From: Occultella glacieicola
Lineage (GTDB): Bacteria; Actinomycetota; Actinomycetes; Actinomycetales; Beutenbergiaceae
Direction of reading: 5' to 3'
Assembly: GCF_004353825.1 (NCBI RefSeq)
Contig: NZ_SMNA01000001.1
Span: 62,001-126,000 of the forward strand
Length of the DNA: 64,000 bases
Shown: piece after piece, positions 5,776 through 19,533 of the stretch
Numbering within the stretch: the stretch's first letter is position 1
Layout: each line of letters starts with the position of its first letter
Position numbers and translations under genes: made by a program
Notes under the pieces: generated by a model
Told to the model about the DNA's origin: nothing
What the model saw: the letters and a program-made list of their open reading frames with translations, nothing else
The model's database searches: none

Positions 5776-6615
5776 CTACGTTCCGCCCTCGGCGGCGATC
5801 GCCGCGGCCTCGGCGCGGGCCGCGCCGGGGTCCAGGTAGTCGCCGCCTCGCACCTGGGATTCCGGGAGACCGCCCGTTGGAGTCCGTAGCCGATAGGCGA
5901 GCGGCCGGGCGTTCGGCAGGTTGAGAGCGGCAAGTTCGGCCCCGTCCAGCCGATCGAGGACGGCGCACACGGCGCGCAGCGAGTTCCCGTGCGCGACCAG
6001 GAGCACCCGGCGACCGGCGGCGACGTGCCCGCCGAGGATCTCCCGGACCCACGGACGGACCCTGGCCACGACGTCCGCGAGGGACTCGGTGGCGGTCAGG
6101 GCCTCGGGTGGCAGGACATCGAACGGCGACAGGGTGCGCCACAGCGCGAGGGTGCCCGGTGCGAGCGGCGGCGGGCGGCCCTCGAGGGAGCGCCTCCAGT
6201 GGATGAACCGCTCGTGGCCGAACCGCTCCGCGATCTCGCTCTTGCGGAACCCGGACAGGGCGCCGTAGTTGCGTTCGTTGAGGCGCCAGTCCCGGGCCAC
6301 CGGGACCGACGAGGGCCAGGCGGTCCGCATGAGCTCGGCGGTGCGCCATCCGCGCACGAGTTCGGAGGTGCAGATCACGTCCGGGATCCACCCGGTGCCG
6401 GCCAGCCGCTGACCGGCGAGCACACACTCCTGTTCGCCGGCGGGCGTGAGTCCCACGTCGATGACGCCGGTGAACAGGTGCCGCGCGTTCGCCACGGACT
6501 CGCCGTGCCGCACGAGCATGACGTTGGCCGTCGCGTGGGGGCCTGGCCCGGTCCCGAGGGTCTCGGACCGGGTGTGTGGGTCGGTCGTCGCATCGGGACC
6601 CAAGACGTGGCTCAT
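5776..6615 (-). CDS. gpmA: 2,3-bisphosphoglycerate-dependent phosphoglycerate mutase-like protein (histidine phosphatase family)
   Basis: RHGES, LNERNYGALSG, WRRS and AHGNSLR motifs. Confidence 0.7.
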   Translation of the reverse strand: MSHVLGPDATTDPHTRSETLGTGPGPHATANVMLVRHGESVANARHLFTGVIDVGLTPAGEQECVLAGQRLAGTGWIPDVICTSELVRGWRTAELMRTAWPSSVPVARDWRLNERNYGALSGFRKSEIAERFGHERFIHWRRSLEGRPPPLAPGTLALWRTLSPFDVLPPEALTATESLADVVARVRPWVREILGGHVAAGRRVLLVAHGNSLRAVCAVLDRLDGAELAALNLPNARPLAYRLRTPTGGLPESQVRGGDYLDPGAARAEAAAIAAEGGT

Positions 6616-6705: not shown

Positions 6706-6921
6706 ATGGCCACCCCCCGATCGCTCGCGTCCAGCCCGTTCAACAACCTGCGGGTGCCGCAGCCGCCGCCGGCGGTGTTCGTGGTGGGACAGCGGGTCAC
6801 GCATGACCGTCACGGCCTCGGCCGGGTCGTCGGACTGGAGGGCGAGGTCGCCGTCCTGGTGGACTTCGGCGACCGCGTGGTCCGGGTGGCCGCGGGGTCG
6901 GCTCGGCTGCACGCGCTCTGA
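6706..6921 (+). CDS. Small (71 aa) Tudor/SH3-like protein resembling the PcrA/UvrD C-terminal or CarD N-terminal domain
   Basis: 'FVVGQRVTHDRHGLGRVVGLEGEVAVLVDFG' pattern. Confidence 0.65.
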   Translation: MATPRSLASSPFNNLRVPQPPPAVFVVGQRVTHDRHGLGRVVGLEGEVAVLVDFGDRVVRVAAGSARLHAL

Positions 6922-6981
6922 AGCGCGCGACCCCGCGTCCGGCGCGGCCTCGCCCGCCCCGGGTTCAGACCGCCTCCGGGC

Positions 6982-8664
6982 TCACCACTCCCGATGGTCG
7001 GGGATCAGCGTGCCCGGGTTGAGGTTGCGGCCCGGGTCCGCCGCCCGGAGCAGGCCTACCATCAGGTCCGTGCCCGCCTCGGAGATGTCCCCCTCGAGCC
7101 ACGGCGCGTGGTCGGTGCCGACGCCGTGGTGGTGCGAGAGCGTCCCCCCGGCGTCGATGAACGACTGCTGGATTGCGGTCTTCACGACGTCGTACTGGCC
7201 GAGGAAGTCCGCGTCCGGGTTCGGGGGGAACGCGAACGTGAAGTAGAGGCAGGCGCCGGAATGGTAGGAGTGCGACAGGTGACACATGATGAACCCCGGC
7301 ACGCCGAGCTCGGTGAACTTCGCCCGAGCCGCCCGCACCGTCGTGGTGTAGACCTGACCGAGCTTCGACCACGGGGCCGCGGTCTCGGACACGTCGCCGA
7401 TCGCGCCGCGGTCGAGGAGGAAGTCGCGGATGTAGGGGGTGTCGAACTTCTTCTGGTCGTACATGGCGCCGGGACCGCGGCCGAGCCGGATGCCGCCGTG
7501 CTTGCCGATGACCTTGCCCACGATGGACTTCTCGGTGCGGACCTTGCCGGCGCCGCCCTCGTATCCGATGTAGGAGATGCAGACCTTCTCGAGGTCCCAA
7601 CCGCGCCGGCGCAGGACCTCGAACAGGCCCTCGCCGACCTTGCCGGAGATGCCTTTCGACGCCTTGCGGGTCGCGAGTGAGAACGCGGTCTCGTTCGCGT
7701 CGGAGACCCGGGTGATCGTGGGTGCCGCGTCGGAGGTGGAGATCTCCGCCATGGCCGCGAGGCCGGCGGCCCAGTTCGGGAACAGGTAGGCGATGACGTC
7801 GCGGTTCTCGGGGACCCGGTGCACGTTCACCCAGGCCTCGGTGATGACCCCGAGGCGGCCCTCGCTGCCGATGATCATCTCGCGCACGCTCGGTCCGGTG
7901 GATGTCGACGGCAGCGGCCGCAGTTCCACCACCTTTCCGGGCAGGACCACCCGTAGGCCCCGGGTGATGTCGGCGATGTCGCCGTACTTGTCGGACTGCA
8001 TGCCCGAGGACCGGGTCGCGATCCAGCCGCCGAGGGTGGAGTGCTTGAACGAGTCCGGCTGGTGTCCCATCGTCCAGCCCCGGGTGGTGAGCTGCTCCTC
8101 GATGTCCGGGCCGAGTCCGCCCGCCTGGATCCGGGCGAGCCCGGAGCTCTCGTCGATCTCGAGCACCCGGTTCATGCGGCCGAGGTCCAGGGAGATGATC
8201 GTGCGTTCCTCCCGTGGCTGGGGGGTCAGGCTGCCCGAGATGTTCGAGCCACCGCCGAACGGGATGAGCACGGCGTCCGCGGCGACGGTCGCGTCGACCA
8301 CGGCGCGCACCTCGTCCTCGTTCGCCGGGTAGACCACCGCGTCCGGCACCCGGGGCAGGTCCCCGGCCCGCACCCGAACCAGGTCGCGCATGCCCTTGCC
8401 GTAGGTGTGCACCACGCGCAGCATGTCGTCGGTGCTGACCTGGTGGTCGCCGACGGCGGCCCGCAACCGGGCGCCGAGGTCGTCACCGAGACGGCTGGCC
8501 GGGACGGCGATCTCGTCGAACGTCGGCGGCTCGCCGCCGGGCTGGGTCAGGTCGATGCCGACCTTGTCCAGGACGAAGCCGGCGAACGCCGGCTTGTCCT
8601 CGTGGTGGAAGGCGATGCCCTCCACGCCCCAGCCCCACCATTTCTGGTGTTCGACGTCGGTCAT
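6982..8664 (-). CDS. FAD-linked oxidase (VAO/PCMH family), alkyl-dihydroxyacetonephosphate synthase-like
   Basis: KWWGWG, PFGGGSN, GHQPDSFKHSTLGGWIATRSSG, GSEGRLGVITE, PYIRDFLLD, GACLYFTFAF and SHHHGVG; ATG 8664 overlaps the upstream stop. Confidence 0.85.
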   Translation of the reverse strand: MTDVEHQKWWGWGVEGIAFHHEDKPAFAGFVLDKVGIDLTQPGGEPPTFDEIAVPASRLGDDLGARLRAAVGDHQVSTDDMLRVVHTYGKGMRDLVRVRAGDLPRVPDAVVYPANEDEVRAVVDATVAADAVLIPFGGGSNISGSLTPQPREERTIISLDLGRMNRVLEIDESSGLARIQAGGLGPDIEEQLTTRGWTMGHQPDSFKHSTLGGWIATRSSGMQSDKYGDIADITRGLRVVLPGKVVELRPLPSTSTGPSVREMIIGSEGRLGVITEAWVNVHRVPENRDVIAYLFPNWAAGLAAMAEISTSDAAPTITRVSDANETAFSLATRKASKGISGKVGEGLFEVLRRRGWDLEKVCISYIGYEGGAGKVRTEKSIVGKVIGKHGGIRLGRGPGAMYDQKKFDTPYIRDFLLDRGAIGDVSETAAPWSKLGQVYTTTVRAARAKFTELGVPGFIMCHLSHSYHSGACLYFTFAFPPNPDADFLGQYDVVKTAIQQSFIDAGGTLSHHHGVGTDHAPWLEGDISEAGTDLMVGLLRAADPGRNLNPGTLIPDHREW

Positions 8665-9413
8665 GAAACATCCTCCTGTGCCTGGCCGAGGTCGCTCTCG
8701 GGCCGGTTGTTGGCTCGATCGTCGTCGGTGACGAGGACGTACGAGGTCTGCATCGTGTGCATGGCACGCACGCGTGCGGTCAGGCGCGCGTTCAGGTCCG
8801 GCAGGCTCTCGCCGGCCCGCGCCCGCACGGGTTTGCCGACGATCACCTTGACCGGCATCCGGCCGGGCTTCGGCCACGCCGCGCCCACCGGCATCGCGTC
8901 GAACGCGCCGACCAGGGCCACCGGGATCAGCGGCACGTGCAGCGAGCGCGCGAGCGCGGCGGCGCCGGGCTTGAACGAGGCCATCTCCCCGGTCCGGGAC
9001 CGGGTGCCCTCCGGGAAGATCAGGAGCGGAACGCCCTGGCGGAGCAGGGACACCGACAGCCCGGCGCCCTTGCCGCGGTTGCTGCCTCGCTCGACGGGGT
9101 AGGAGTTGAAGAAGAACGAGGTGAGGGTGCTGCGCCACTTCTGCCGGTAGAAGTAGTCGGCGGCGGTCGCCGTGGCCAGGTTCTTCGTGACCCGGTACGG
9201 CAGCGCCGTGATGCACAGGGGCGCGTCGAGGTGACTGGAGTGGTTGGCCACGAGGATGAACGGTCCGTCGATCCCGGCCAGGTGCCGCTCGCCCTCGACC
9301 GTCACCCGGGTGTTCGCGAAGATCACCGGTCGAAGGATCAGCCGCTGAGCCACGTAGCGAAACCAGCGGTGCCACGCGCGGTGATACCGAGCGGTTCTGC
9401 GCTGTGCGCTCAT
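8661..9413 (-). CDS. PlsC-type lysophospholipid/glycerolipid acyltransferase
   Basis: NHSSHLD (HxxxxD) and IFPEGTRS motifs; ATGA overlaps at both ends. Confidence 0.9.
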   Translation of the reverse strand: MSAQRRTARYHRAWHRWFRYVAQRLILRPVIFANTRVTVEGERHLAGIDGPFILVANHSSHLDAPLCITALPYRVTKNLATATAADYFYRQKWRSTLTSFFFNSYPVERGSNRGKGAGLSVSLLRQGVPLLIFPEGTRSRTGEMASFKPGAAALARSLHVPLIPVALVGAFDAMPVGAAWPKPGRMPVKVIVGKPVRARAGESLPDLNARLTARVRAMHTMQTSYVLVTDDDRANNRPESDLGQAQEDVS

Positions 9414-10207
9414 CGGCGTCCCTTCTTGATCAGGGCGGTGGCCCTGTTCACCAACGGTCGCGGCGCGTGTCGGGCACCCCAGGCGAGGAGCTTGAACCGC
9501 CGCGACGGGATCGACCTGGTCCGGCCCCGGTCCACATCGGCGAGGCAGTCGGCCACGAGTCGGTCCGCATCGAGCCACAGTACCGAGGGGATCGAGTTCG
9601 TGCGGATCGCGGCGCGCTCGTGGAACTCGGTGCGCACCCATCCCGGCAGCAGGGTCATCACCGTGACGCCGGTGCCGGCCAGTTCGATGCCGAGCCCCTC
9701 CGAGTAGGAGTTCACCCACGCCTTGATCGCCGAGTAGGAGCCCATCGGGATCAGGCCGGCCACCGAGGCGACGTTGATGATGAGGCCACTGCCCCGCTGC
9801 GTCATCGCCCGACCGGCGGCGCCGCCGAGCACGAGCACACCGCCCACCATGAGGTCGATCGCCTGCAGGTGGGGGCTGGGGTCCTCGCTGATCAGCGGCG
9901 TGTGCACGCCGTGGCCGGCGTTGTTGACGAGCACGGTCACCGGCACGTCCGTCCGGGTCAGCCGCGCCACGGCGAGGTCGACGCCGTCGGGCTCGGCGAG
10001 GTCCGCCGTCAGGGTCTCGACCGTGATCCCGAACTCGTGCCGCAGGTCCGCCGCGGTGGAGTCCAGCCGCTGGGCGTCGCGGGCCACGAGGACCAGGTCG
10101 AGCCCTCGGCCCGCGAGGCCCTTGGCGAACGCCAGGCCGATGCCGGACGTGCCACCGGTGACCATCGCGGTGCCGGTCAGCGGTGAGTTCTCGGCGGCGG
10201 ACGTCAT
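9410..10207 (-). CDS. Classical SDR family oxidoreductase
   Basis: TGGTSGIG, NNAG, YSAIK (YxxxK), PGWVRTEF. Confidence 0.9.
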   Translation of the reverse strand: MTSAAENSPLTGTAMVTGGTSGIGLAFAKGLAGRGLDLVLVARDAQRLDSTAADLRHEFGITVETLTADLAEPDGVDLAVARLTRTDVPVTVLVNNAGHGVHTPLISEDPSPHLQAIDLMVGGVLVLGGAAGRAMTQRGSGLIINVASVAGLIPMGSYSAIKAWVNSYSEGLGIELAGTGVTVMTLLPGWVRTEFHERAAIRTNSIPSVLWLDADRLVADCLADVDRGRTRSIPSRRFKLLAWGARHAPRPLVNRATALIKKGRR

Positions 10208-12471
10208 CGTCGGCCCGATCCGGTGAGGCTGCGCAGAACCGGGGAGAACCGCCCCTCGGCGGTCGTCGTCCAGCTGTGCACCGGCCAGCGCTTCTCCTTG
10301 GCGTACCGGTACAGGGAGGAGTCGGGGTTGACCACGTTCGGGTGGCCGACCACCTCCAGCCAGGGACGGTCGGAGTAGGTGTCGCCGTAGGCGTAGGAGC
10401 CGGCGAGGTCGACGCCGGAGTCCCGGGCGTACCGGGTCAGCCAGGTGGCGCGGGCCTCGTCCACGAGCGGGGAGGTGGCCAGGTGCCCGGTCCAGCGGCC
10501 GTCGGAGTCCTTCTCCATCTCGCCGGCCACGATCACGTCGAACATGTCCGAGAGCGGCTCCACGAACACGTCGATCTGCCCGGTGACCAGGACGGTTCGG
10601 TGCCCTGCGGCGCGGTGTTCCGCGATCCGCTCGGTCGCTTCGGCGAGCACCCTGGCCCGCAGCGACGGGGTCACCTTCCGCGCGATGATGTCGCGCAGCG
10701 CGGCCTCATTGACCCCCTCGTACCGGCGCATGAAACTGCGGATGAAGTCGCCGCGGTCACGCCACTCGGCCTGCAGGTAGGTCCCGGAGTTGGCGACCAT
10801 GCCGCCGAGCTCACGCAGTGCCTGGCCCGAACCCTTCGCGGCGAGCTCGACCCACACGTAGTGCTCGATCAGGCTGGCCGCGGCCACGGTGCCGTGCAGG
10901 TCGAACACGGCGAGCACGTCGGTGCGCTGCGGGAGGGCACGCTTGGTGGCGCCACCGGAGGAACCACGCCGGCTACGGGACCGCATCAGGCCGGGGACCT
11001 TCGGGACGTGCACCTCCATCATGTAGTAGTCCCAGTCGATCGCCGTGACGTCGAAACCGTGGGACTCGCGCCGCTCCGGCGGCACGGTCTCGTGCAGCGC
11101 ACGGGTGTTCGCGTCGTCGAAGACGACCTCGGTCTGGGTGTACGGCTTGTAGAGGTCCGTGAACTTGCGCAGGGTGCCGAGGTCGCGCTTCGCCTTGAAG
11201 ACGGCGGAGATCCAGCCGCGGGTGCGGTCGTTCGCGGGCAGCCGGCCGACGGCCCGGTCGGCCAGGTCGACGGCGAGTTCCCGGCGGCGCAGGCTGCGCT
11301 CGACTGCGGGTCCGTTCGGGAACGTCCAGTTCGGCACCTGCACGGTGCTGCCCTCGTCGTCCAGGAGCGGGTGGGCGCTGAAGTACTCCCGGATCATCGA
11401 GACCATCCGCCCGAACCGCAGCGGGTTCCGGATGCCGGAGGCCACCTGGTAGTAGCGGGGCTCGCCGACGGCCGAGGGCGCGGCGGCCGCGGCGAGGATG
11501 GCGTTGACGACGTGGTCGACCGGGATCACGTCCAGGATCGTGTCCGCGAGCGCGGGGAACTCGGGCAGCATGCCGCGCCCGTAGGCCGCGATCAGGGGGT
11601 CGGCGACCTTGAACCCGTCGATCCAACCCGGGTAGGGGTGGCTGAGCGAGCTCTCGATGATCGTGGGCCGGACCACGGAGAGCCGGTGCTCGGCCCCCCA
11701 CAGCTCCTCGGCGACCCGTTCCCCGAGCGCCTTGGTGAAGGTGTAGACGTCCGGCCAGCCGAGGGACTGGGCGCGCGTGCGCCCGGCGTCCTGGAGCCGC
11801 TCGGTGACCCAGGCCTCGCGGGCCTCCTCGGCCGCCTGGGCGACGGCCTGGGCGCCCGCGCGGCGGTGCACGGACCGGGCCTTCTCGAGGAGCTTGCCGA
11901 GGACCTCCGGCCGTCGGGACGCGGCCTCGACCTCCGCCCGGGCGGCCAGGGCCCGGGTCATCTCCTCGGTGCGGTCCACCCCGTGGTCGAGGGATCGCTC
12001 CTCGGCGACCCCCTTGCGCAGCCCGGCGACGTAACAGGTGGAGACGTGCACCACGTGCGGGTCGGAGCCGGACTCCAGCAGCGCCGTGTACAGGGACACC
12101 GGGCCGCCGACGTTGTCACGGAACGCGTCGTCGATCGGCATGTCGAAGGACACGCTCGATGCGGAGTGGATGACGACGTCGATGTCGCCCGGCAGCGCCG
12201 GCACGTCGCCGAGGTCACCGGCCAGGACGGTGACCCGACCCGCGGCGGTCGCGACGCCGTCGTCCCCCACGCGCTCGCGCCACGCGGAGAACACGGGCTT
12301 CCTCAGCAACTTGTCCACGCGCATCTGCGCGGTCAGGGCGCCGCGCGGCCGGACCAGCAGGCTGATCCGGGTGGTGGGGTAGGTCGAGAGCAGCTTCTCC
12401 AGGACGGCCTGGCCGACGAAGCCGGTGGCGCCCGTGATGAGCACGTGGGCGTTGTTCAAAGGGTCGGACAC
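10204..12471 (-). CDS. Fatty acyl-CoA reductase (extended SDR / male-sterility type) fused to a HAD-IB hydrolase domain
   Basis: N-terminus: TGATGFVGQAVLEKLL, HVSTCYVAG, YTFTKALGE, RPTIIES, PYPGWIDG, DVIPVDHVVNAIL. C-terminus: VFDLHGT, LVTG, YAYGDTYSD. GTG start preceded by TACAGT-N7. Confidence 0.85.
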   Translation of the reverse strand: MSDPLNNAHVLITGATGFVGQAVLEKLLSTYPTTRISLLVRPRGALTAQMRVDKLLRKPVFSAWRERVGDDGVATAAGRVTVLAGDLGDVPALPGDIDVVIHSASSVSFDMPIDDAFRDNVGGPVSLYTALLESGSDPHVVHVSTCYVAGLRKGVAEERSLDHGVDRTEEMTRALAARAEVEAASRRPEVLGKLLEKARSVHRRAGAQAVAQAAEEAREAWVTERLQDAGRTRAQSLGWPDVYTFTKALGERVAEELWGAEHRLSVVRPTIIESSLSHPYPGWIDGFKVADPLIAAYGRGMLPEFPALADTILDVIPVDHVVNAILAAAAAPSAVGEPRYYQVASGIRNPLRFGRMVSMIREYFSAHPLLDDEGSTVQVPNWTFPNGPAVERSLRRRELAVDLADRAVGRLPANDRTRGWISAVFKAKRDLGTLRKFTDLYKPYTQTEVVFDDANTRALHETVPPERRESHGFDVTAIDWDYYMMEVHVPKVPGLMRSRSRRGSSGGATKRALPQRTDVLAVFDLHGTVAAASLIEHYVWVELAAKGSGQALRELGGMVANSGTYLQAEWRDRGDFIRSFMRRYEGVNEAALRDIIARKVTPSLRARVLAEATERIAEHRAAGHRTVLVTGQIDVFVEPLSDMFDVIVAGEMEKDSDGRWTGHLATSPLVDEARATWLTRYARDSGVDLAGSYAYGDTYSDRPWLEVVGHPNVVNPDSSLYRYAKEKRWPVHSWTTTAEGRFSPVLRSLTGSGRR

Positions 12472-12478
12472 CCCGGTT

Positions 12479-12484
12479 ACTGTA
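12479..12484 (-). promoter_or_regulatory. Putative sigma-A -10 element (TACAGT) for a leaderless transcript starting at the FAR-HAD gene
   Basis: TACAGT-AACCGGG-GTG on the minus strand; no Shine-Dalgarno sequence. Confidence 0.5.
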
Positions 12485-12491
12485 CGCGGGG

Positions 12492-13295
12492 TCACCGGTG
12501 CCGTGCTCCCCGGGACGCGAAGCGTCCGAGGGCCTGCCGGATCGGGTGTGCGCCGGCCAGCCCCGGCAGTGCGGCGACCTGGCTGTCCGCGGCGTCGATG
12601 TCGGCGCGCACGGACGGGTCCGCGAACAGGTACCGCAGGACCGGTTGGACGTAGCCGGGGGCGCCGTAGCGGGAGCCGGGCCACCGCCAGGTCCGCACGG
12701 CGCGCCGCCCGAGACGGCCCGCGGCGGGGGAGGCGGCGAGCCGGTCGGAGGCCTCGTCGACGTAGAACTCCACGTGCCGGTCCTTGATCGCCACGATCGG
12801 GTCGATCACCGCGCCCAGGCGTGGCTCCAGCTGCCCGGCCCGCGCGTAGCTCGCGCGGGCCACCAGGCTGTCCAGGAGCCCGACGGCCATGTGTCCCGCC
12901 ACGATGTCGCTGCCGAGCAGGTTCGTGCGGATCGCGTCCGCGGTCGGGCTCACCCGGTCGTCCCAACTGCGACGCAACTCGCCCAGCTTCGTGCTGTGGG
13001 CCACCTCGGTGTGGTTGTTCTCGTCGAGCACGGCCTCGAGGGCGTCGGCGATCCAGTACTCCTCATAGGCCCAGGTGGTCAGGAAGGCGGTGACCCGGGA
13101 CTCGGCGTGCGTGGGGGTGACGAGCAGATCCCGCATCAGCCGCAGGGTGCCGCGTTCGACCTGTTGCAGGTGCCGCAGCGTGAGCAGGGTGTTCGTGCCG
13201 AGTCCCTGCAGGGCGGCCAGGTCGAGGTCCTTGCGGCGCAGCGACCGGGGGGTGCGGGTGTAGGAGCGCACGTCGAAGCCGGCGGAGTCGGACAT
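12492..13295 (-). CDS. Ferritin-like superfamily protein, degenerate paralog of 13364-14158
   Basis: Collinear with its neighbour (FDV..Y, DLDL, RDLLVT, FLTTWAYEE, GHMAVG, RHVEFY), but several metal ligands are substituted. Alternative start 13304. Confidence 0.75.
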   Translation of the reverse strand: MSDSAGFDVRSYTRTPRSLRRKDLDLAALQGLGTNTLLTLRHLQQVERGTLRLMRDLLVTPTHAESRVTAFLTTWAYEEYWIADALEAVLDENNHTEVAHSTKLGELRRSWDDRVSPTADAIRTNLLGSDIVAGHMAVGLLDSLVARASYARAGQLEPRLGAVIDPIVAIKDRHVEFYVDEASDRLAASPAAGRLGRRAVRTWRWPGSRYGAPGYVQPVLRYLFADPSVRADIDAADSQVAALPGLAGAHPIRQALGRFASRGARHR

Positions 13296-13363
13296 GAACG
13301 GCATCCGGGCGCCGGCAGCACCCACCGGGCGACCGGGGCCGCCGGACCCGCGGGACGGCCCGC

Positions 13364-14158
13364 TCACGCCGCCACGCCGCGGGCGTCGAGGGCGTCGGCG
13401 AAGATGGTCAGGCCCTCCATGCCGGGCAGTCGGCCGATGTGACGGTCGATCGCGTTGATCTCCTTGCGACCCTCCGCGCCTCCGAACAGGTGACCCATCA
13501 CGTGGGTCACCTCGTCGTCGGTCATGATCCCCGAACCCACCGGTGCCCACGCGTTCTTCAGGGCGAACCGGGCGAGCTTCTGCGCCTTCGGGTTGCCGGC
13601 GAGCCGGGCCTTCGCCTGGGTCGCGTAGAACGCCACGTGCCGGGACTCCTGGGCGGCGATCCGCCGGAGCAGCTCGGCCAGGGACGGGTGCCCCTCGAGC
13701 ACACCGAGACGCTTGTAGGCGGCCGCCGCGGACCACTCGTTGGCGGCCCCCCAGAGCATGTGCACGGCCACGAAGTCCTTGCCGACGATGTTGCTGAGCA
13801 GGGACTGCTTCACCGGCGCGAGCCGGTCCCGCCAGCCGAGCTTGACCCGGCGGTCCTTGAGCTGGTCGTAGTTCACGGTCACCCCGTGCAGGGAGAGCAC
13901 GTGCGCGAGTGCCTCCCCGTGCCAGAACTCCTCGCGGTTCCACATGGTCATGAAGGCGTTCACCTCGCCCTCCCCGTGGGAGCGGGTGACCAGCATGTCC
14001 CGCAGGTAGCACACGGTGTGGTACTCGACGTCGCACATGTACCGCAACGTCCGGATCGACTCCGGCGGCAGCGGGTTCTCGCGGAAGTTGTCGAGGTCGA
14101 GGTCCTCCCAGTTGACCCGCACGGAGTCCTGGGTGAACTTGTCGATATCAAAAGCCAT
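13364..14158 (-). CDS. Ferritin-like diiron protein (acyl-ACP desaturase-like fold)
   Basis: Diiron ligand pattern E...ExxH...E...ExxH: DVE, WNREEFWH, ANE, IAAQESRHVAFY. Confidence 0.8.
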   Translation of the reverse strand: MAFDIDKFTQDSVRVNWEDLDLDNFRENPLPPESIRTLRYMCDVEYHTVCYLRDMLVTRSHGEGEVNAFMTMWNREEFWHGEALAHVLSLHGVTVNYDQLKDRRVKLGWRDRLAPVKQSLLSNIVGKDFVAVHMLWGAANEWSAAAAYKRLGVLEGHPSLAELLRRIAAQESRHVAFYATQAKARLAGNPKAQKLARFALKNAWAPVGSGIMTDDEVTHVMGHLFGGAEGRKEINAIDRHIGRLPGMEGLTIFADALDARGVAA

Positions 14159-14228
14159 CAGGGTGTGCCCTTCACTCCCGGTGCTGCACGTGACGGTCAG
14201 CCAGGCGCCGTAGGCCCGGGGCGGGTGA

Positions 14229-14249
14229 ACGCTACACGGACTGTAGCGT
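14229..14249. promoter_or_regulatory. Palindromic operator ACGCTACA-N5-TGTAGCGT, likely a TetR site
   Basis: Perfect 8-bp inverted repeat just downstream of a minus-strand TAGGCT -10 (14261-14266), between tetR and the ferritin-like gene. Confidence 0.65.
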
Positions 14250-14292
14250 CTTGCGGTCCGAGCCTACGACCTCGACGGGAGTTCGTGCCACA

Positions 14293-14862
14293 TCAGTCTT
14301 CGGATGGGTCCGACGTCGCCTGCAGGGAGATCCGGAGGGTGGCCACGACGGAGTCCGTCCAGCCCGCCGGGAACGTTCCGGAGTGGGCGAACCGAGCCGC
14401 GACGGCGCCGAGGAGCAGGTCGACGGCGACCTCGATGTCCGCGTCCGGGCGGACCTGCCCGGTGGCGACCCCGTCACGCAGCCGCGCGACCGCGAGCGCG
14501 ATCCGCGGCCGCAGCAGTTTGTCCCGGATGAGTTCCACCTGGTTCTGGTCCTCGCTCTGCACCAGGCCGAGGAACACGCCCGAGCCCGGGCCACCCTCCA
14601 GGGTCGCGATCAGGGACTCCACGGCGGCGCGCATGTCCCTCCAGACGTCATCGCCGGGTTCGAGCACGCGGGAGGCCATGTGGTCGCCGAGCGCTGCGGC
14701 GAGCACCGCGTCGCGGTCCTTGTGACGCCGGTAGATGGTGGTCCTGGCCACGCCGGACTCGGCCGCGACCGCCTCGACGGTCACGGCCAGGGGACCGTGG
14801 GTCCGCAGCAGGTTCATCGCCGCCGCGTAGATGCGACGGTCGACCTCCTCGCGGCGCGACAT
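14293..14862 (-). CDS. TetR/AcrR family transcriptional regulator
   Basis: HTH 'VTVEAVAAESGVARTTIYRRH'. Confidence 0.9.
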   Translation of the reverse strand: MSRREEVDRRIYAAAMNLLRTHGPLAVTVEAVAAESGVARTTIYRRHKDRDAVLAAALGDHMASRVLEPGDDVWRDMRAAVESLIATLEGGPGSGVFLGLVQSEDQNQVELIRDKLLRPRIALAVARLRDGVATGQVRPDADIEVAVDLLLGAVAARFAHSGTFPAGWTDSVVATLRISLQATSDPSED

Positions 14863-14867
14863 CCGGG

Positions 14868-15134
14868 TCAGGCGTCGAGGTCGCTGGCGAGCAGTTCGGC
14901 CAGTTCGTCGAGGACGCGTTCGGCGCGGGGCCCGTCCGCATGCAGCGTGACCTTGTCCCCGTACTTCGCACCGATGGTCATCACCCCGAGGATGCTCGCG
15001 GCATCCTGGGGGACCGACCCGTTCTTGGAGATCCGCACCGAGATGCCGGAATCCTCGGCCGCCCGCGTGAAGATCGCCGCCGGGCGGGCATGCAGTCCCA
15101 CCGGCGAACCAATCGTCGCCGTGCGCTCAGCCAT
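14868..15134 (-). CDS. ptsH: HPr family phosphocarrier protein
   Basis: GLHARPA (His15) and DAASILGVM (Ser46) motifs; 88 aa. Confidence 0.9.
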   Translation of the reverse strand: MAERTATIGSPVGLHARPAAIFTRAAEDSGISVRISKNGSVPQDAASILGVMTIGAKYGDKVTLHADGPRAERVLDELAELLASDLDA

Positions 15135-15173
15135 CGTCGGATCCTTCGTGGGTGTGGGGCTTGGACCCCTAAT

Positions 15174-16190
15174 CTACCCGTTCGCCGACGTCCATTCGAG
15201 CAGTGCCGGGGCCGCCCACGCGTTCACGATCCGGTCCGGCGTGAGCCCCGCCGCGGCGGCCCGCGCGCACCCGTGGTCGAGCAGGTCGAGCTGGCCGGGG
15301 GCGTGCGCGTCGGAGTCGATCGCGAACAGGCACTCCATCTCGACGGCGAGGTGGAGCAGCCGGGTGGGTGGGTCCCGTCGTTCGGGGCGTGAGTTGATCT
15401 CCACGGCGACCCCGAACCGGCGGCAGGCCTCGAAGACGAGCTCGGCGTCGAACTCCGACTCCGGCCGGGTGCCCCGCGCGCCCAGGACCCGGCGCCCGGT
15501 GCAGTGCCCGAGCACGTCGACGCGCGGGTTCGCGATCGCGGTGACCATCCGCCGGGTCATCTGCTCGGCCGGCATCCGCAGGGCGGAGTGGACGCTCGCG
15601 ACCACGATGTCGAGGGAGTCGAGGAGGTCCGCCTCGCCGTCGAGCGTGCCGTCCTCGAGGATGTCCACCTCCACCCCGGTGAGGATGCGGAACGGGGCCA
15701 GCTCGGCGTTCAGCGCGGCCACCTGCTCGATCTGCGCGCGCAGGCGCTCCGGGGAGAGCCCGCGCGCCACGGTCAGCCGCGGCGAGTGGTCGGTCAGGGC
15801 CAGGTAGGAGTGGCCGAGGTCGATCGCGACGGCGGCCATCTCGGTGATCGGGCTCCCACCGTCGGAGGCGTCGGAGTGGGTGTGCAGGTCGCCGCGAAGC
15901 CAGCCGCGCACCTGCTCGGCACCGTCGACGAGGGGCCCGGCGGCACGCTCCAGGTCCGCCAGGTACTGCGGCACCTCACCGCGTGCGGCCGCCATCGCGA
16001 CACCGGCCGTGCGGGGGCCGACGTCGGGCAGGTCCGTCAGCGTGCCGGCGGCGAGGTGGTCGGCGAGCTCGTCGGGGTCGAGGCCGCGCAGGCGGCGCGC
16101 CGCCCGGCGGAACGCCTGGATCCGGTGGGTGTCCGCGAGGTCGCGCTCGAGGAGGAACGCCACCCGTTCCAGCGCATCGATCGGATCCAC
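15174..16190 (-). CDS. PHP domain protein with a PolX-like N-terminal helix-hairpin-helix region
   Basis: 'AFRRAA', 'LPDVGPRTA' HhH; PHP motifs DLHTHS, LTDHS, GVEVDI, SVHS, LGHCTGR, EINS, IDSDAH. Confidence 0.85.
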   Translation of the reverse strand: MDPIDALERVAFLLERDLADTHRIQAFRRAARRLRGLDPDELADHLAAGTLTDLPDVGPRTAGVAMAAARGEVPQYLADLERAAGPLVDGAEQVRGWLRGDLHTHSDASDGGSPITEMAAVAIDLGHSYLALTDHSPRLTVARGLSPERLRAQIEQVAALNAELAPFRILTGVEVDILEDGTLDGEADLLDSLDIVVASVHSALRMPAEQMTRRMVTAIANPRVDVLGHCTGRRVLGARGTRPESEFDAELVFEACRRFGVAVEINSRPERRDPPTRLLHLAVEMECLFAIDSDAHAPGQLDLLDHGCARAAAAGLTPDRIVNAWAAPALLEWTSANG

Positions 16191-19107: not shown

Positions 19108-19533
19108 GTGTTCTGGAGGAAGAAGCGCCGCGACTCCGCGCCGAGTGTCGACGAGTACCTGCGCGACGTGAACGGACCCCCGACCGCGGTGACGGGCGCA
19201 CCCGGCCAGGCTCCGCCGTCGGAGTTCGGCCCGCCGGTGCCACCCGCCGCCTCGGTGCCTGCGGGCGGGTTCAGCCTGGTGGTGGTGGACGTCTTCCGCA
19301 TCACCGGCCGCGGCACGGTCGTGACCGGCGTCCTCGCCGACGGCGTGGCCCGGGTCGGGCAACAGGTCGCGATCGTCCGCGACGGCGCGCACGTCGCCTC
19401 GAGTGAGCTCGGCGGGATCGAGGCGTTCCGGCGGGTACGCGAGGAAGCGGCCCCGGGCGAGAACGTCGGACTGCTCCTGCGGGGGCTGTCCAAGGATCGG
19501 GTCAAGCGCGGTGACATCGTGGCCGGACGCTGA
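19108..19533 (+). CDS. Stand-alone EF-Tu domain II-like beta-barrel protein
   Basis: 'DVFRITGRGTVVTG...GIEAFRR...AAPGENVGLLLRG...VKRGDIV' with no GTPase domain; TAGCCT-N6-GTG. Confidence 0.75.
   Translation: MFWRKKRRDSAPSVDEYLRDVNGPPTAVTGAPGQAPPSEFGPPVPPAASVPAGGFSLVVVDVFRITGRGTVVTGVLADGVARVGQQVAIVRDGAHVASSELGGIEAFRRVREEAAPGENVGLLLRGLSKDRVKRGDIVAGR

Follow-up and report, generated by a model that had tools for sequence, protein, structure and literature searches.

The locus examined here raises the question of whether a soil actinobacterium, Occultella glacieicola, encodes ether-lipid synthesis via the acyl-DHAP route, as was proposed in the first-pass annotation of a 64,000-nucleotide stretch of its genome (hereafter the window). 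That annotation described seven co-oriented genes with three ATGA stop/start overlaps, and both features were recovered: the seven ORFs are intact, lie on the minus strand with GC3 values of 0.91-0.95 and had their gene families confirmed with Pfam and NCBIfam, and the overlaps fall exactly at 10204-10207, 9410-9413 and 8661-8664 (Table 1). A fourth overlap of the form GTGA (12492-12495) leads to an open in-frame start for FAR-HAD, giving a product of 763 aa. The genes and their order stand, but the reading of all seven as one operon probably does not: because tetR sits 5 nt behind an HPr gene, and a 134-nt gap bearing a palindrome separates it from ferritin-like 1, the operon proper probably comprises six genes, with tetR excluded. 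A scan for T-run terminators between 6500 and 15300 returned 0 sites.

Table 1. Coordinates of the cluster genes and associated elements in the window.
Feature	Position	Strand	Length	Description
tetR	14862-14293	-	189 aa	PF00440 + PF16859
ferritin-like 1	14158-13364	-	264 aa	acyl-ACP-desaturase fold, predicted catalytic subunit
ferritin-like 2	13304-12492	-	270 aa	paralog, metal site incomplete, predicted structural/regulatory partner
FAR-HAD	12471-10204 (alternative start 12495)	-	755 aa (763 aa)	fatty acyl-CoA reductase + HAD-IB
SDR	10207-9410	-	265 aa	classical SDR, predicted alkyl-DHAP to alkyl-glycerol-3-phosphate reductase
acyltransferase	9413-8661	-	250 aa	PlsC-type HxxxxD, predicted DHAP acyltransferase
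AGPS-like flavoenzyme	8664-6982	-	560 aa	predicted ether-bond former
palindrome CGCTACA-N5-TGTAGCG	14230..14248	no strand		candidate TetR operator, operon-upstream
13-nt inverted repeat	6888..6940	no strand		3' of last gene, possible terminator (weak)

The TetR-family protein is likely to be the repressor of this operon, and a tetR homolog is present in 38 of the 51 ferritin-like loci with full flanks. With 0-1 mismatches allowed, the palindrome occurs only once in the 5.3-Mb genome, and its core was detected in 12 of 197 cluster loci, namely six from Occultella/Ruania that carry tetR and six from Jiangella that show one mismatch and no tetR match. The core was not found in the 68 other tetR-bearing cluster loci.

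Both E-values and phylogeny place the flavoprotein with AGPS and not with the D-lactate/glycolate dehydrogenases, bearing out its earlier description as AGPS-like. This VAO/PCMH flavoprotein matches the AGPS of Dictyostelium (2uuu) with an e-value of 1.6e-113 and mammalian AGPS (4bby) with 3.1e-87, against only 7.3e-20 for D-lactate dehydrogenase and 2e-16 for the second of the D-lactate/glycolate oxidase comparators. Its residues R319, R413, Y474 and H511-H513 align with R419, R515, Y578 and H615-H617 of 4bby, the active-site residues of AGPS, and are invariant in 140/140 aligned homologs. In a FastTree phylogeny of 158 sequences, rooted on one GlcD-like protein, with weak deep nodes and without a biochemically tested AGPS, the enzyme forms a clade with eukaryotic AGPS-type proteins (support 0.995), apart from paralogs linked to GlpD and kinase genes. 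One such GlpD/DAG-kinase-linked paralog has the same catalytic residues and matches 2uuu with an e-value of 1e-102, and thus these residues do not fix the direction or substrate of the reaction. At one locus (L188) an animal-type AGPS (34% identical) lies inside the same cluster, which we read as displacement by an equivalent enzyme.

The FAR-HAD protein contains PF07993 (E 5.5e-46), PF03015 and PF12710 (E 5.5e-30), and scores above the cut-off of TIGR01490. Its FAR domain displays the NAD_binding_4 and Sterile regions along with the TGxTGF and YxxxK motifs, and Y243/K247, together with D524, R674, D697 and D701 of the HAD domain, are invariant in 140/140 homologs. Of the HAD phosphatase motifs (I, DxD; II, T/S; III, K/R; IV, GDxxxD), the residues D524, T630, R674, D697 and D701 are retained; the second position of motif I is atypical, with H in this protein and E, Q or H, not D, among homologs. 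The SDR belongs to PF00106 and its Y158/K162 pair is invariant (140/140), the YxxxK motif being generic to SDRs. Its best NCBIfam model is a mycolate reductase, at 153 bits versus a cut-off of 380, and Ayr1 and DHRS7B are absent among its 39 PDB matches with E<=1e-15 and its best 25 of 209 NCBIfam models; genomic context leads us to predict that it reduces alkyl-DHAP. The acyltransferase contains PF01553 only and lacks the PlsB/GPAT-type architecture (~680 aa with a GPAT C-terminal region). H58 and D63 are invariant in 140/140 homologs and the NHSSHLD and FPEGTRS blocks are conserved, these motifs being common to the whole HxxxxD family. DHAP is predicted to be its acceptor on the basis of context, since 78 of 80 loci link it to AGPS. 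The first-pass annotation had counted four ether-lipid families here, each appearing once, and Pfam and NCBIfam confirm the gene families; what does not hold is the equation of the HxxxxD acyltransferase with GNPAT, as the protein is PlsC-like with 250 aa and its sole PDB match at E<=0.1 is PlsC (5kym, E 1.4e-13).

These families, with their intact active-site motifs, linkage and co-occurrence, are the observed basis from which we infer the substrates, direction, products and a heterodimer of the ferritin-like proteins. On this reading the operon, under the control of TetR, would make 1-O-alkyl glycerolipids de novo by the acyl-DHAP route. In it the FAR domain would reduce branched acyl-CoA to a fatty alcohol and the PlsC-type enzyme would transfer an acyl group onto DHAP. 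The AGPS flavoenzyme would exchange this acyl group for the alcohol to give 1-O-alkyl-DHAP, which the SDR would convert to 1-O-alkyl-glycerol-3-phosphate, to be acylated and fed into phospho- or glycolipid synthesis. The HAD domain might remove phosphate along the way, and the ferritin-like pair might act as an O2-dependent oxidase of lipid chains tied to the pathway, consisting of a catalytic subunit and a metal-free partner.

The earlier expectation that these genes would co-occur in other genomes was borne out. Across 251 genomes of the order, an AGPS ortholog was detected in 59, and FAR-HAD in 59/59 of those. FAR-HAD was found in 77 of the 251, with 18 of the 77 lacking an AGPS ortholog, and hence it is not specific to the acyl-DHAP route. 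Among the best 80 AGPS loci, 78 contain an acyltransferase match and 78 an SDR match (3 of each distant, at 27-32%); a full FAR-HAD is present at 45 of them and the ferritin pair at 17. The same genes are kept together in several orders and many other genomes, and therefore their clustering is not due to chance. In genomes with a split cluster the genes regroup in new pairs, as in Kineococcus rubinsiae, in which AGPS lies near an SDR, and FAR-HAD and an acyltransferase lie together elsewhere. Loci of Subtercola (S. vilae DB165, S. lobariae and S. boreus) contain the full gene set.

Furthermore, taxa with reported ether lipids carry genes of the cluster. Dimethylacetals are reported at 21-29% in four species of Subtercola (PMC5945732, Table 2), and glycerol-ether glycolipids are described in Arachnia (Propionibacterium) propionica (PMC11237483, citing Pasciak 2003); genomes labelled A. 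propionica appear in PMC13012113 among both the FAR and the AGPS entries. The grouping of the flavoenzyme with AGPS, the wide co-occurrence and these taxa all support the acyl-DHAP proposal, to which we assign a probability of about 0.85; the cluster most likely makes ether-linked membrane lipids by what would be animal-type chemistry.

The PlsC likeness of the acyltransferase, the mycolate reductase model as nearest to the SDR, the atypical HAD motif I, the catalytic residues shared with the GlpD-linked paralog and the FAR-HAD genomes without AGPS count against this proposal. The whole cluster might instead degrade or remodel scavenged ether lipids, or produce wax esters or storage lipids, with the AGPS-like enzyme running in reverse or acting as an acyl exchanger. 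TetR control is common among catabolic operons, some genomes have FAR-HAD without AGPS, and in other actinobacteria AGPS-like paralogs with intact residues adjoin GlpD and a lipid kinase. The latter GlpD/AGPS-like/DAG-kinase/TetR clusters, of the Rv2249c-Rv2252 type, share with the present one an AGPS-family flavoenzyme with the same catalytic residues. However, that flavoenzyme is only 35-39% identical, falls in a separate clade and has other partners, whereas here the partners are an alcohol-making reductase and an acyltransferase, with no GlpD. The presence of FAR in all 59 genomes with an AGPS ortholog also speaks against this alternative, as do reports of branched-chain ether lipids in carrier taxa that have the organisms' own chain types. 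We hence consider degradation, remodeling or storage-lipid synthesis quite improbable, and retain ether-lipid synthesis as the preferred reading.

A literature search found no paper describing this cluster. Nevertheless, the first-pass view that the route differs from the known bacterial ones cannot be upheld, since an AGPS route in Myxococcus is already published and genetically tested: PMC9131029, PMC13012113 and bioRxiv 10.1101/2025.10.10.681575 describe the M. xanthus operon MXAN_1676-1675-1674, encoding AGPS, FAR-GNPAT and an epimerase-like protein, and a genetically shown contribution of MXAN_1676 to alkyl ether lipids. Like that operon, as described there, the Occultella cluster combines AGPS, FAR, an HxxxxD acyltransferase and an NAD-binding enzyme. 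It differs in the fusion partner of FAR (HAD in place of GNPAT), in having a stand-alone PlsC-type acyltransferase of 250 aa and a classical SDR as its reductase, in the Dictyostelium-type SDKYGDI motif of its AGPS, and in the presence of TetR and the ferritin-like pair, with no CarF found. The same four activities are predicted as in the peroxisomal pathway found in animals and in Dictyostelium (FAR1, GNPAT or FARAT, AGPS, DHRS7B, PEDS1), with an AGPS homologous to 2uuu and 4bby that keeps the catalytic residues, but the cluster is without a GNPAT-type protein and no PEDS1 was found. The GNPAT table of PMC13012113 has 9 Actinomycetota rows, all Acidimicrobiia. The elbA-E cluster of M. xanthus likewise brings FAR, acyltransferase and HAD (ElbB) activities together at a single ether-lipid locus; in contrast to Occultella, which has AGPS and no ACS/ACP, its multidomain ElbD carries ACS and ACP modules and AGPS is absent.

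The two ferritin-like proteins had been described as a diiron pair, which holds for only one of them. Ferritin-like 1 has the full diiron ligand set (E, ExxH, E, ExxH) on a ferritin-like bundle and is predicted to bind metal, whereas ferritin-like 2 is its paralog (35% identical; profile match probability 100, E 5.5e-58) that has lost ligands: among 133 homologs, K replaces E77 in 100 and E171 in 104, and I, L or V replaces H80 in 124. Ferritin-like 1 scores 19.5 bits against PF03405, below the cut-off of 22.7, although some homologs carry this domain. Unlike the soluble acyl-ACP desaturases (castor delta-9, M. tuberculosis DesA1/DesA2), to which it is 15-18% identical, it is paired with a ligand-less paralog in an ether-lipid cluster that has no ACP gene. 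AGPS is present in 48 of the 51 full-flank ferritin-like loci, and the pair stays in the cluster through rearrangements. In one family (201 genomes) the pair occurs in 57/57 AGPS genomes, alone in 6, and neither is present in 138. A separate tally of ferritin-like 1 gives 35 carriers, of which 32 have FAR-HAD, and only 3 carriers among 174 genomes without FAR-HAD.

One tentative role for the pair is that of a soluble delta-1' desaturase converting the alkyl to the vinyl ether, with a lyso or soluble intermediate as its probable substrate. The desaturase fold with its full ligand set and the tight association with AGPS are consistent with this, as are the Subtercola dimethylacetals, which are abundant and saturated-chain, with only a trace of a-15:1 in one of four species (PMC5945732). 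Moreover, PF09989 (PlsA type) was found in 0/10 genomes including O. glacieicola (controls positive in 4/14), PF10520 (PEDS1) likewise in 0/10, with no control genome positive either, and none of Subtercola, Microbacteriaceae, Occultella, Ruania, Kineococcus, Agreia pratensis and Frigoribacterium faeni has an entry in the GTDB-wide PEDS1 table of PMC13012113. The Arachnia relative searched has no ferritin pair, which fits the alkyl-type ethers of Arachnia. On the other hand, K. rubinsiae B12 contains 2.9% a15:0 dimethylacetal by GC-MS (PMC7472656), yet its draft genome has no ferritin-profile match; the MIDI system misidentifies this dimethylacetal as 14:0 2-OH. Dimethylacetals can arise from free aldehydes too. 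The AGPS ortholog is missing from three named pair-only genomes and FAR from five pair-only genomes, yet in their ferritin-like 1 the six ligands are all conserved and the branches are short; Agromyces is an example of a pair-only taxon. Ferritin-like 1 contains no membrane segment (max KD19 of 1.06), no ferredoxin gene lies within the cluster, and membrane desaturases (PF00487), found in 4 of 5 genomes tested, are alternative candidates. Vinyl-ether formation by the pair would make this a complete aerobic plasmalogen pathway with a last step unrelated to PEDS1/CarF; that the cluster is such a pathway, its vinyl ether formed by a soluble diiron pair of enzyme and pseudo-enzyme, we regard as rather doubtful.

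A serious possibility, if short of even odds, is that the pair desaturates (or hydroxylates) acyl-CoA or acyl-ACP ahead of the FAR and acyltransferase steps, with no relation to a vinyl ether. Subtercola, however, carries the pair yet is almost devoid of unsaturated fatty acids at 25 C (PMC5945732), the linkage to FAR-HAD is closer than one would expect of a general desaturase, and identity to known desaturases is low. Another diiron oxygenase activity on FAR products or ethers, such as deformylating aldehydes to alkanes or cleaving ethers oxidatively, appears unlikely; enzymes of this kind rank 2.7-3.4 Z units below the acyl-ACP desaturase, and there are the pair-only genomes without FAR.

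Vinyl-ether formation by the diiron pair would mean a new enzyme for a reaction that, among oxidative routes, is so far known only from PEDS1/CarF, and the pair may explain the plasmalogen-type signals of some aerobic actinobacteria, for which no enzyme is known. Should the plasmalogen reading be true, it would constitute a third plasmalogen route, account for the dimethylacetals of Subtercola and its kin, and overturn the view in current papers that plasmalogens of obligate aerobes are largely restricted to Myxococcota. The small, apparently soluble enzyme set would also be a convenient bacterial source of alkyl and alkenyl lipids. Our literature search found no genes assigned to the Subtercola dimethylacetals or the Arachnia ether glycolipids, and the cluster offers a testable genetic basis for both. 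The frequency of AGPS orthologs (59/251 in the order, 57/201 in one family) suggests that ether lipids are common in Actinomycetes, with a bearing on ether lipids as soil biomarkers and on how the AGPS route evolved.

The cluster (tetR, ferritin-1, its paralog ferritin-like 2, FAR-HAD, SDR, acyltransferase and flavoprotein) is real and conserved, and we predict that it is an ether-lipid biosynthesis operon, with a probability of roughly 0.85. On the window sequence all seven genes, in the order given by the first-pass annotation, and each of its three ATGA overlaps were borne out, and a fourth overlap, GTGA, could join ferritin-like 2 with FAR-HAD. An HPr gene precedes tetR by 5 nt, and the 134-nt gap preceding ferritin-1 contains a palindrome that is single-copy genome-wide, retained in the Occultella and Ruania loci and absent from 68 other tetR-bearing loci. 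We infer a six-gene operon controlled by the TetR repressor. Among the matches listed, Occultella aeris and O. gossypii are the nearest named relatives, with 96% identity in AGPS (alkyl-DHAP synthase) and identical gene order.

Features neighbouring the cluster in the window, and loci in other genomes (L-handles) with genes linked to it
Feature	Location	Remark
Phosphoglycerate-mutase-like gene	window 5776-6615	neighbour; adjoins the cluster in 5 of the best 80 loci
HPr + PHP-domain gene	window 14868-16190	upstream of the cluster
141-aa ORF	window 19108-19533	no Pfam match
DAG-kinase/YegS-family gene	L032:893-1960	adjoins the cluster
DAG-kinase/YegS-family gene	L045:11748-12797	adjoins the cluster
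Cluster with animal-type AGPS	L188:7700-16140	Propionibacteriaceae MAG
FAR-HAD/Lar_N locus	L032:2902-5153	
FAR-HAD/Lar_N locus	L095:7651-9836	
FAR-HAD/Lar_N locus	L134:6333-9821	
FAR-HAD/Lar_N locus	L194:11082-20004	
FAR-HAD/Lar_N locus	L406:10032-12301	
FAR-HAD/Lar_N locus	L407:5101-7486	

By sequence, the flavoprotein belongs to the AGPS family: it matched Dictyostelium AGPS with an E-value of 1.6e-113 and the mammalian enzyme with 3.1e-87, as against 7e-20 or weaker for D-lactate and glycolate oxidases, in keeping with its earlier assignment as AGPS-like rather than D-lactate/glycolate type. Counterparts of the AGPS active-site residues R419, R515, Y578 and H615-617 are present and invariant in 140/140 aligned homologs (from 211 distinct ones). 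However, an AGPS-like paralog adjoining GlpD and a lipid kinase retains the same set, so intact residues alone do not decide function. In a FastTree phylogeny (158 sequences, 548 columns), which holds no biochemically tested AGPS and is weak at its deep nodes, the flavoprotein falls in an actinobacterial clade (support 1.0) nested in a larger one (0.995) that takes in four proteins named as eukaryotic and leaves out the GlpD-linked paralogs. At five loci (L305, L306, L307, L311, L312) a lipid kinase adjoins a member of another AGPS-like family whose catalytic residues are intact; several of these loci also hold GlpD and TetR, and the family possibly serves ether-lipid salvage or breakdown. Close AGPS orthologs also occur in records labelled Mycobacterium simulans (70% identity), Janthinobacterium (83% to Kineococcus) and Acidobacteria, the last placed by the tree within actinobacteria, at L038, L323 and L340, through either transfer or mis-binning.

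Catalytic motifs are retained in FAR, SDR and acyltransferase (140 aligned of 166, 165 and 175 homologs, respectively). The acyltransferase had been placed in the HxxxxD family of GNPAT (DHAP acyltransferase); its family membership and motifs stood, but it is PlsC-sized and its architecture is not that of GNPAT. The SDR is generic by family-model and PDB matches, and in the HAD domain the nucleophile and the Mg-binding motifs are intact but the second Asp is missing. Downstream of FAR-HAD in Subtercola, Propionibacteriaceae, Actinoplanes and one MAG we noted a Lar_N (lactate-racemase-like) gene and a second acyltransferase, joined in two loci by a Zn-dependent dehydrogenase and in Actinoplanes by LarB/LarC/LarE-type cofactor genes; the Lar_N-like product may be a nickel-pincer epimerase working in lipid synthesis. 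The DAG-kinase/YegS-family neighbour in Subtercola and Plantibacter could recycle alkylglycerols.

A search for co-occurrence, proposed as a check in the first-pass annotation, found the genes together in other genomes. At the best 80 of 573 confirmed AGPS loci, several of them partial in sequence, acyltransferase and SDR each matched in 78/80 (three distant in each), full FAR-HAD in 45/80 and the ferritin pair in 17/80. The 51 ferritin-1 loci with full flanks (among the best 80 of 379), mostly divergent and rearranged in layout, carry AGPS and SDR in 48/51 each, FAR-HAD and acyltransferase in 49/51 each and tetR in 38/51. Across 251 genomes of the order, AGPS orthologs (identity at least 51%, E<1e-180; 19 other genomes have only 34-40% paralogs) occur in 59, FAR-HAD in 77, including all 59 of these, and ferritin-1 in 35, with FAR-HAD in 32 and an AGPS ortholog in 28 of the latter. 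In a sample of 201 genomes from one family (f7), 57 have both AGPS and ferritin-1, 6 have ferritin-1 without AGPS and 138 lack both, while AGPS without ferritin-1 did not occur. As the sampled genomes are kin and non-independent, these are plain counts without a statistic. A motif scan extended the full cluster to records of Agreia, Frigoribacterium, Streptomyces, Brevibacterium, Kocuria and Phytoactinopolyspora.

Variants of this arrangement were also seen. The remaining 18 FAR-HAD genomes (for example G027, G032, G035, G064) carry the fusion at 45-49% identity without an AGPS ortholog, four of them with a single distant ferritin-1, possibly for an AGPS-independent product. L188 combines the ferritin pair and FAR-HAD with two SDRs and, replacing the usual AGPS, an animal-type one related most closely, among named proteins, to those of Propionicimonas and Anaerolineae; an acyltransferase match was not found within this locus. 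Lone ferritin-1 homologs (L186, L189, L192, L237, L289, L300; 43-52%), mostly in Acidimicrobiia records, keep all six ligands, and neither the paralog nor lipid genes were found adjoining them.

In its predicted mode of action the cluster resembles the acyl-DHAP route of animals and Dictyostelium, and also MXAN_1676-1674 of M. xanthus. Since the latter is already published and genetically tested (bioRxiv 10.1101/2025.10.10.681575; PMC9131029; PMC13012113), the proposed difference from known bacterial ether routes is not supported. Unlike these systems, however, the cluster combines a FAR-HAD fusion, a short PlsC-type acyltransferase, a classical SDR, a ferritin pair and TetR. The main texts of those three papers do not mention Actinomycetota or Actinobacteria, and that of bioRxiv 10.64898/2026.06.23.733905 names them once, as a sponge symbiont group. 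A description of the cluster was not found in the literature searched, a scope outside which most subscription journals and bioRxiv supplements fall; its individual genes are already automatic matches within a published dataset. The boldest reading, a PEDS1-independent aerobic plasmalogen pathway in which the ferritin pair would make the vinyl ether, is less likely than not. Counting in its favour, PlsA-type PF09989 was found in 0/10 genomes searched, with a working positive control; PF10520 (PEDS1) was likewise found in 0/10, but there no control genome matched.

Reported lipids bear on both the ether-lipid prediction and this reading. Dimethylacetal sums are about 22, 27, 29 and 21% in S. 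vilae, S. frigoramans, S. boreus and S. lobariae (PMC5945732 Table 2), with a-15:1 a trace in only one of the four; the same source lists dimethylacetals as low in Agreia and not detected in Frondihabitans. S. vilae DB165, S. lobariae and three strains of S. boreus have loci with the full gene set. P. propionicum is reported to have glycerol-ether glycolipids, according to work cited in PMC11237483. The PMC13012113 supplementary tables (12/15 files in a first search, all 15 in a second) contain FAR-HAD and AGPS matches for A. propionica-labelled genomes, S. frigoramans, A. pratensis, F. faeni, Kineococcus and Frondihabitans; rows for PEDS1 or GNPAT are absent for all of these. K. rubinsiae B12, whose genome has AGPS, SDR, FAR-HAD and acyltransferase split over two loci, yields 2.9% a15:0 dimethylacetal, which MIDI miscalls as 14:0 2-OH (PMC7472656). 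The 10.3% 14:0 2-OH beside 9.7% a-15:0 dimethylacetal in S. lobariae (PMC5945732 Table 2) is consistent with such a miscall. Frondihabitans, with the genes present, counts against the gene-lipid link, an objection that would lapse if the major 14:0 2-OH peak of that genus were a15:0 dimethylacetal miscalled in this way. Vinyl ethers or aldehydes may hide behind older actinobacterial '14:0 2-OH' reports.
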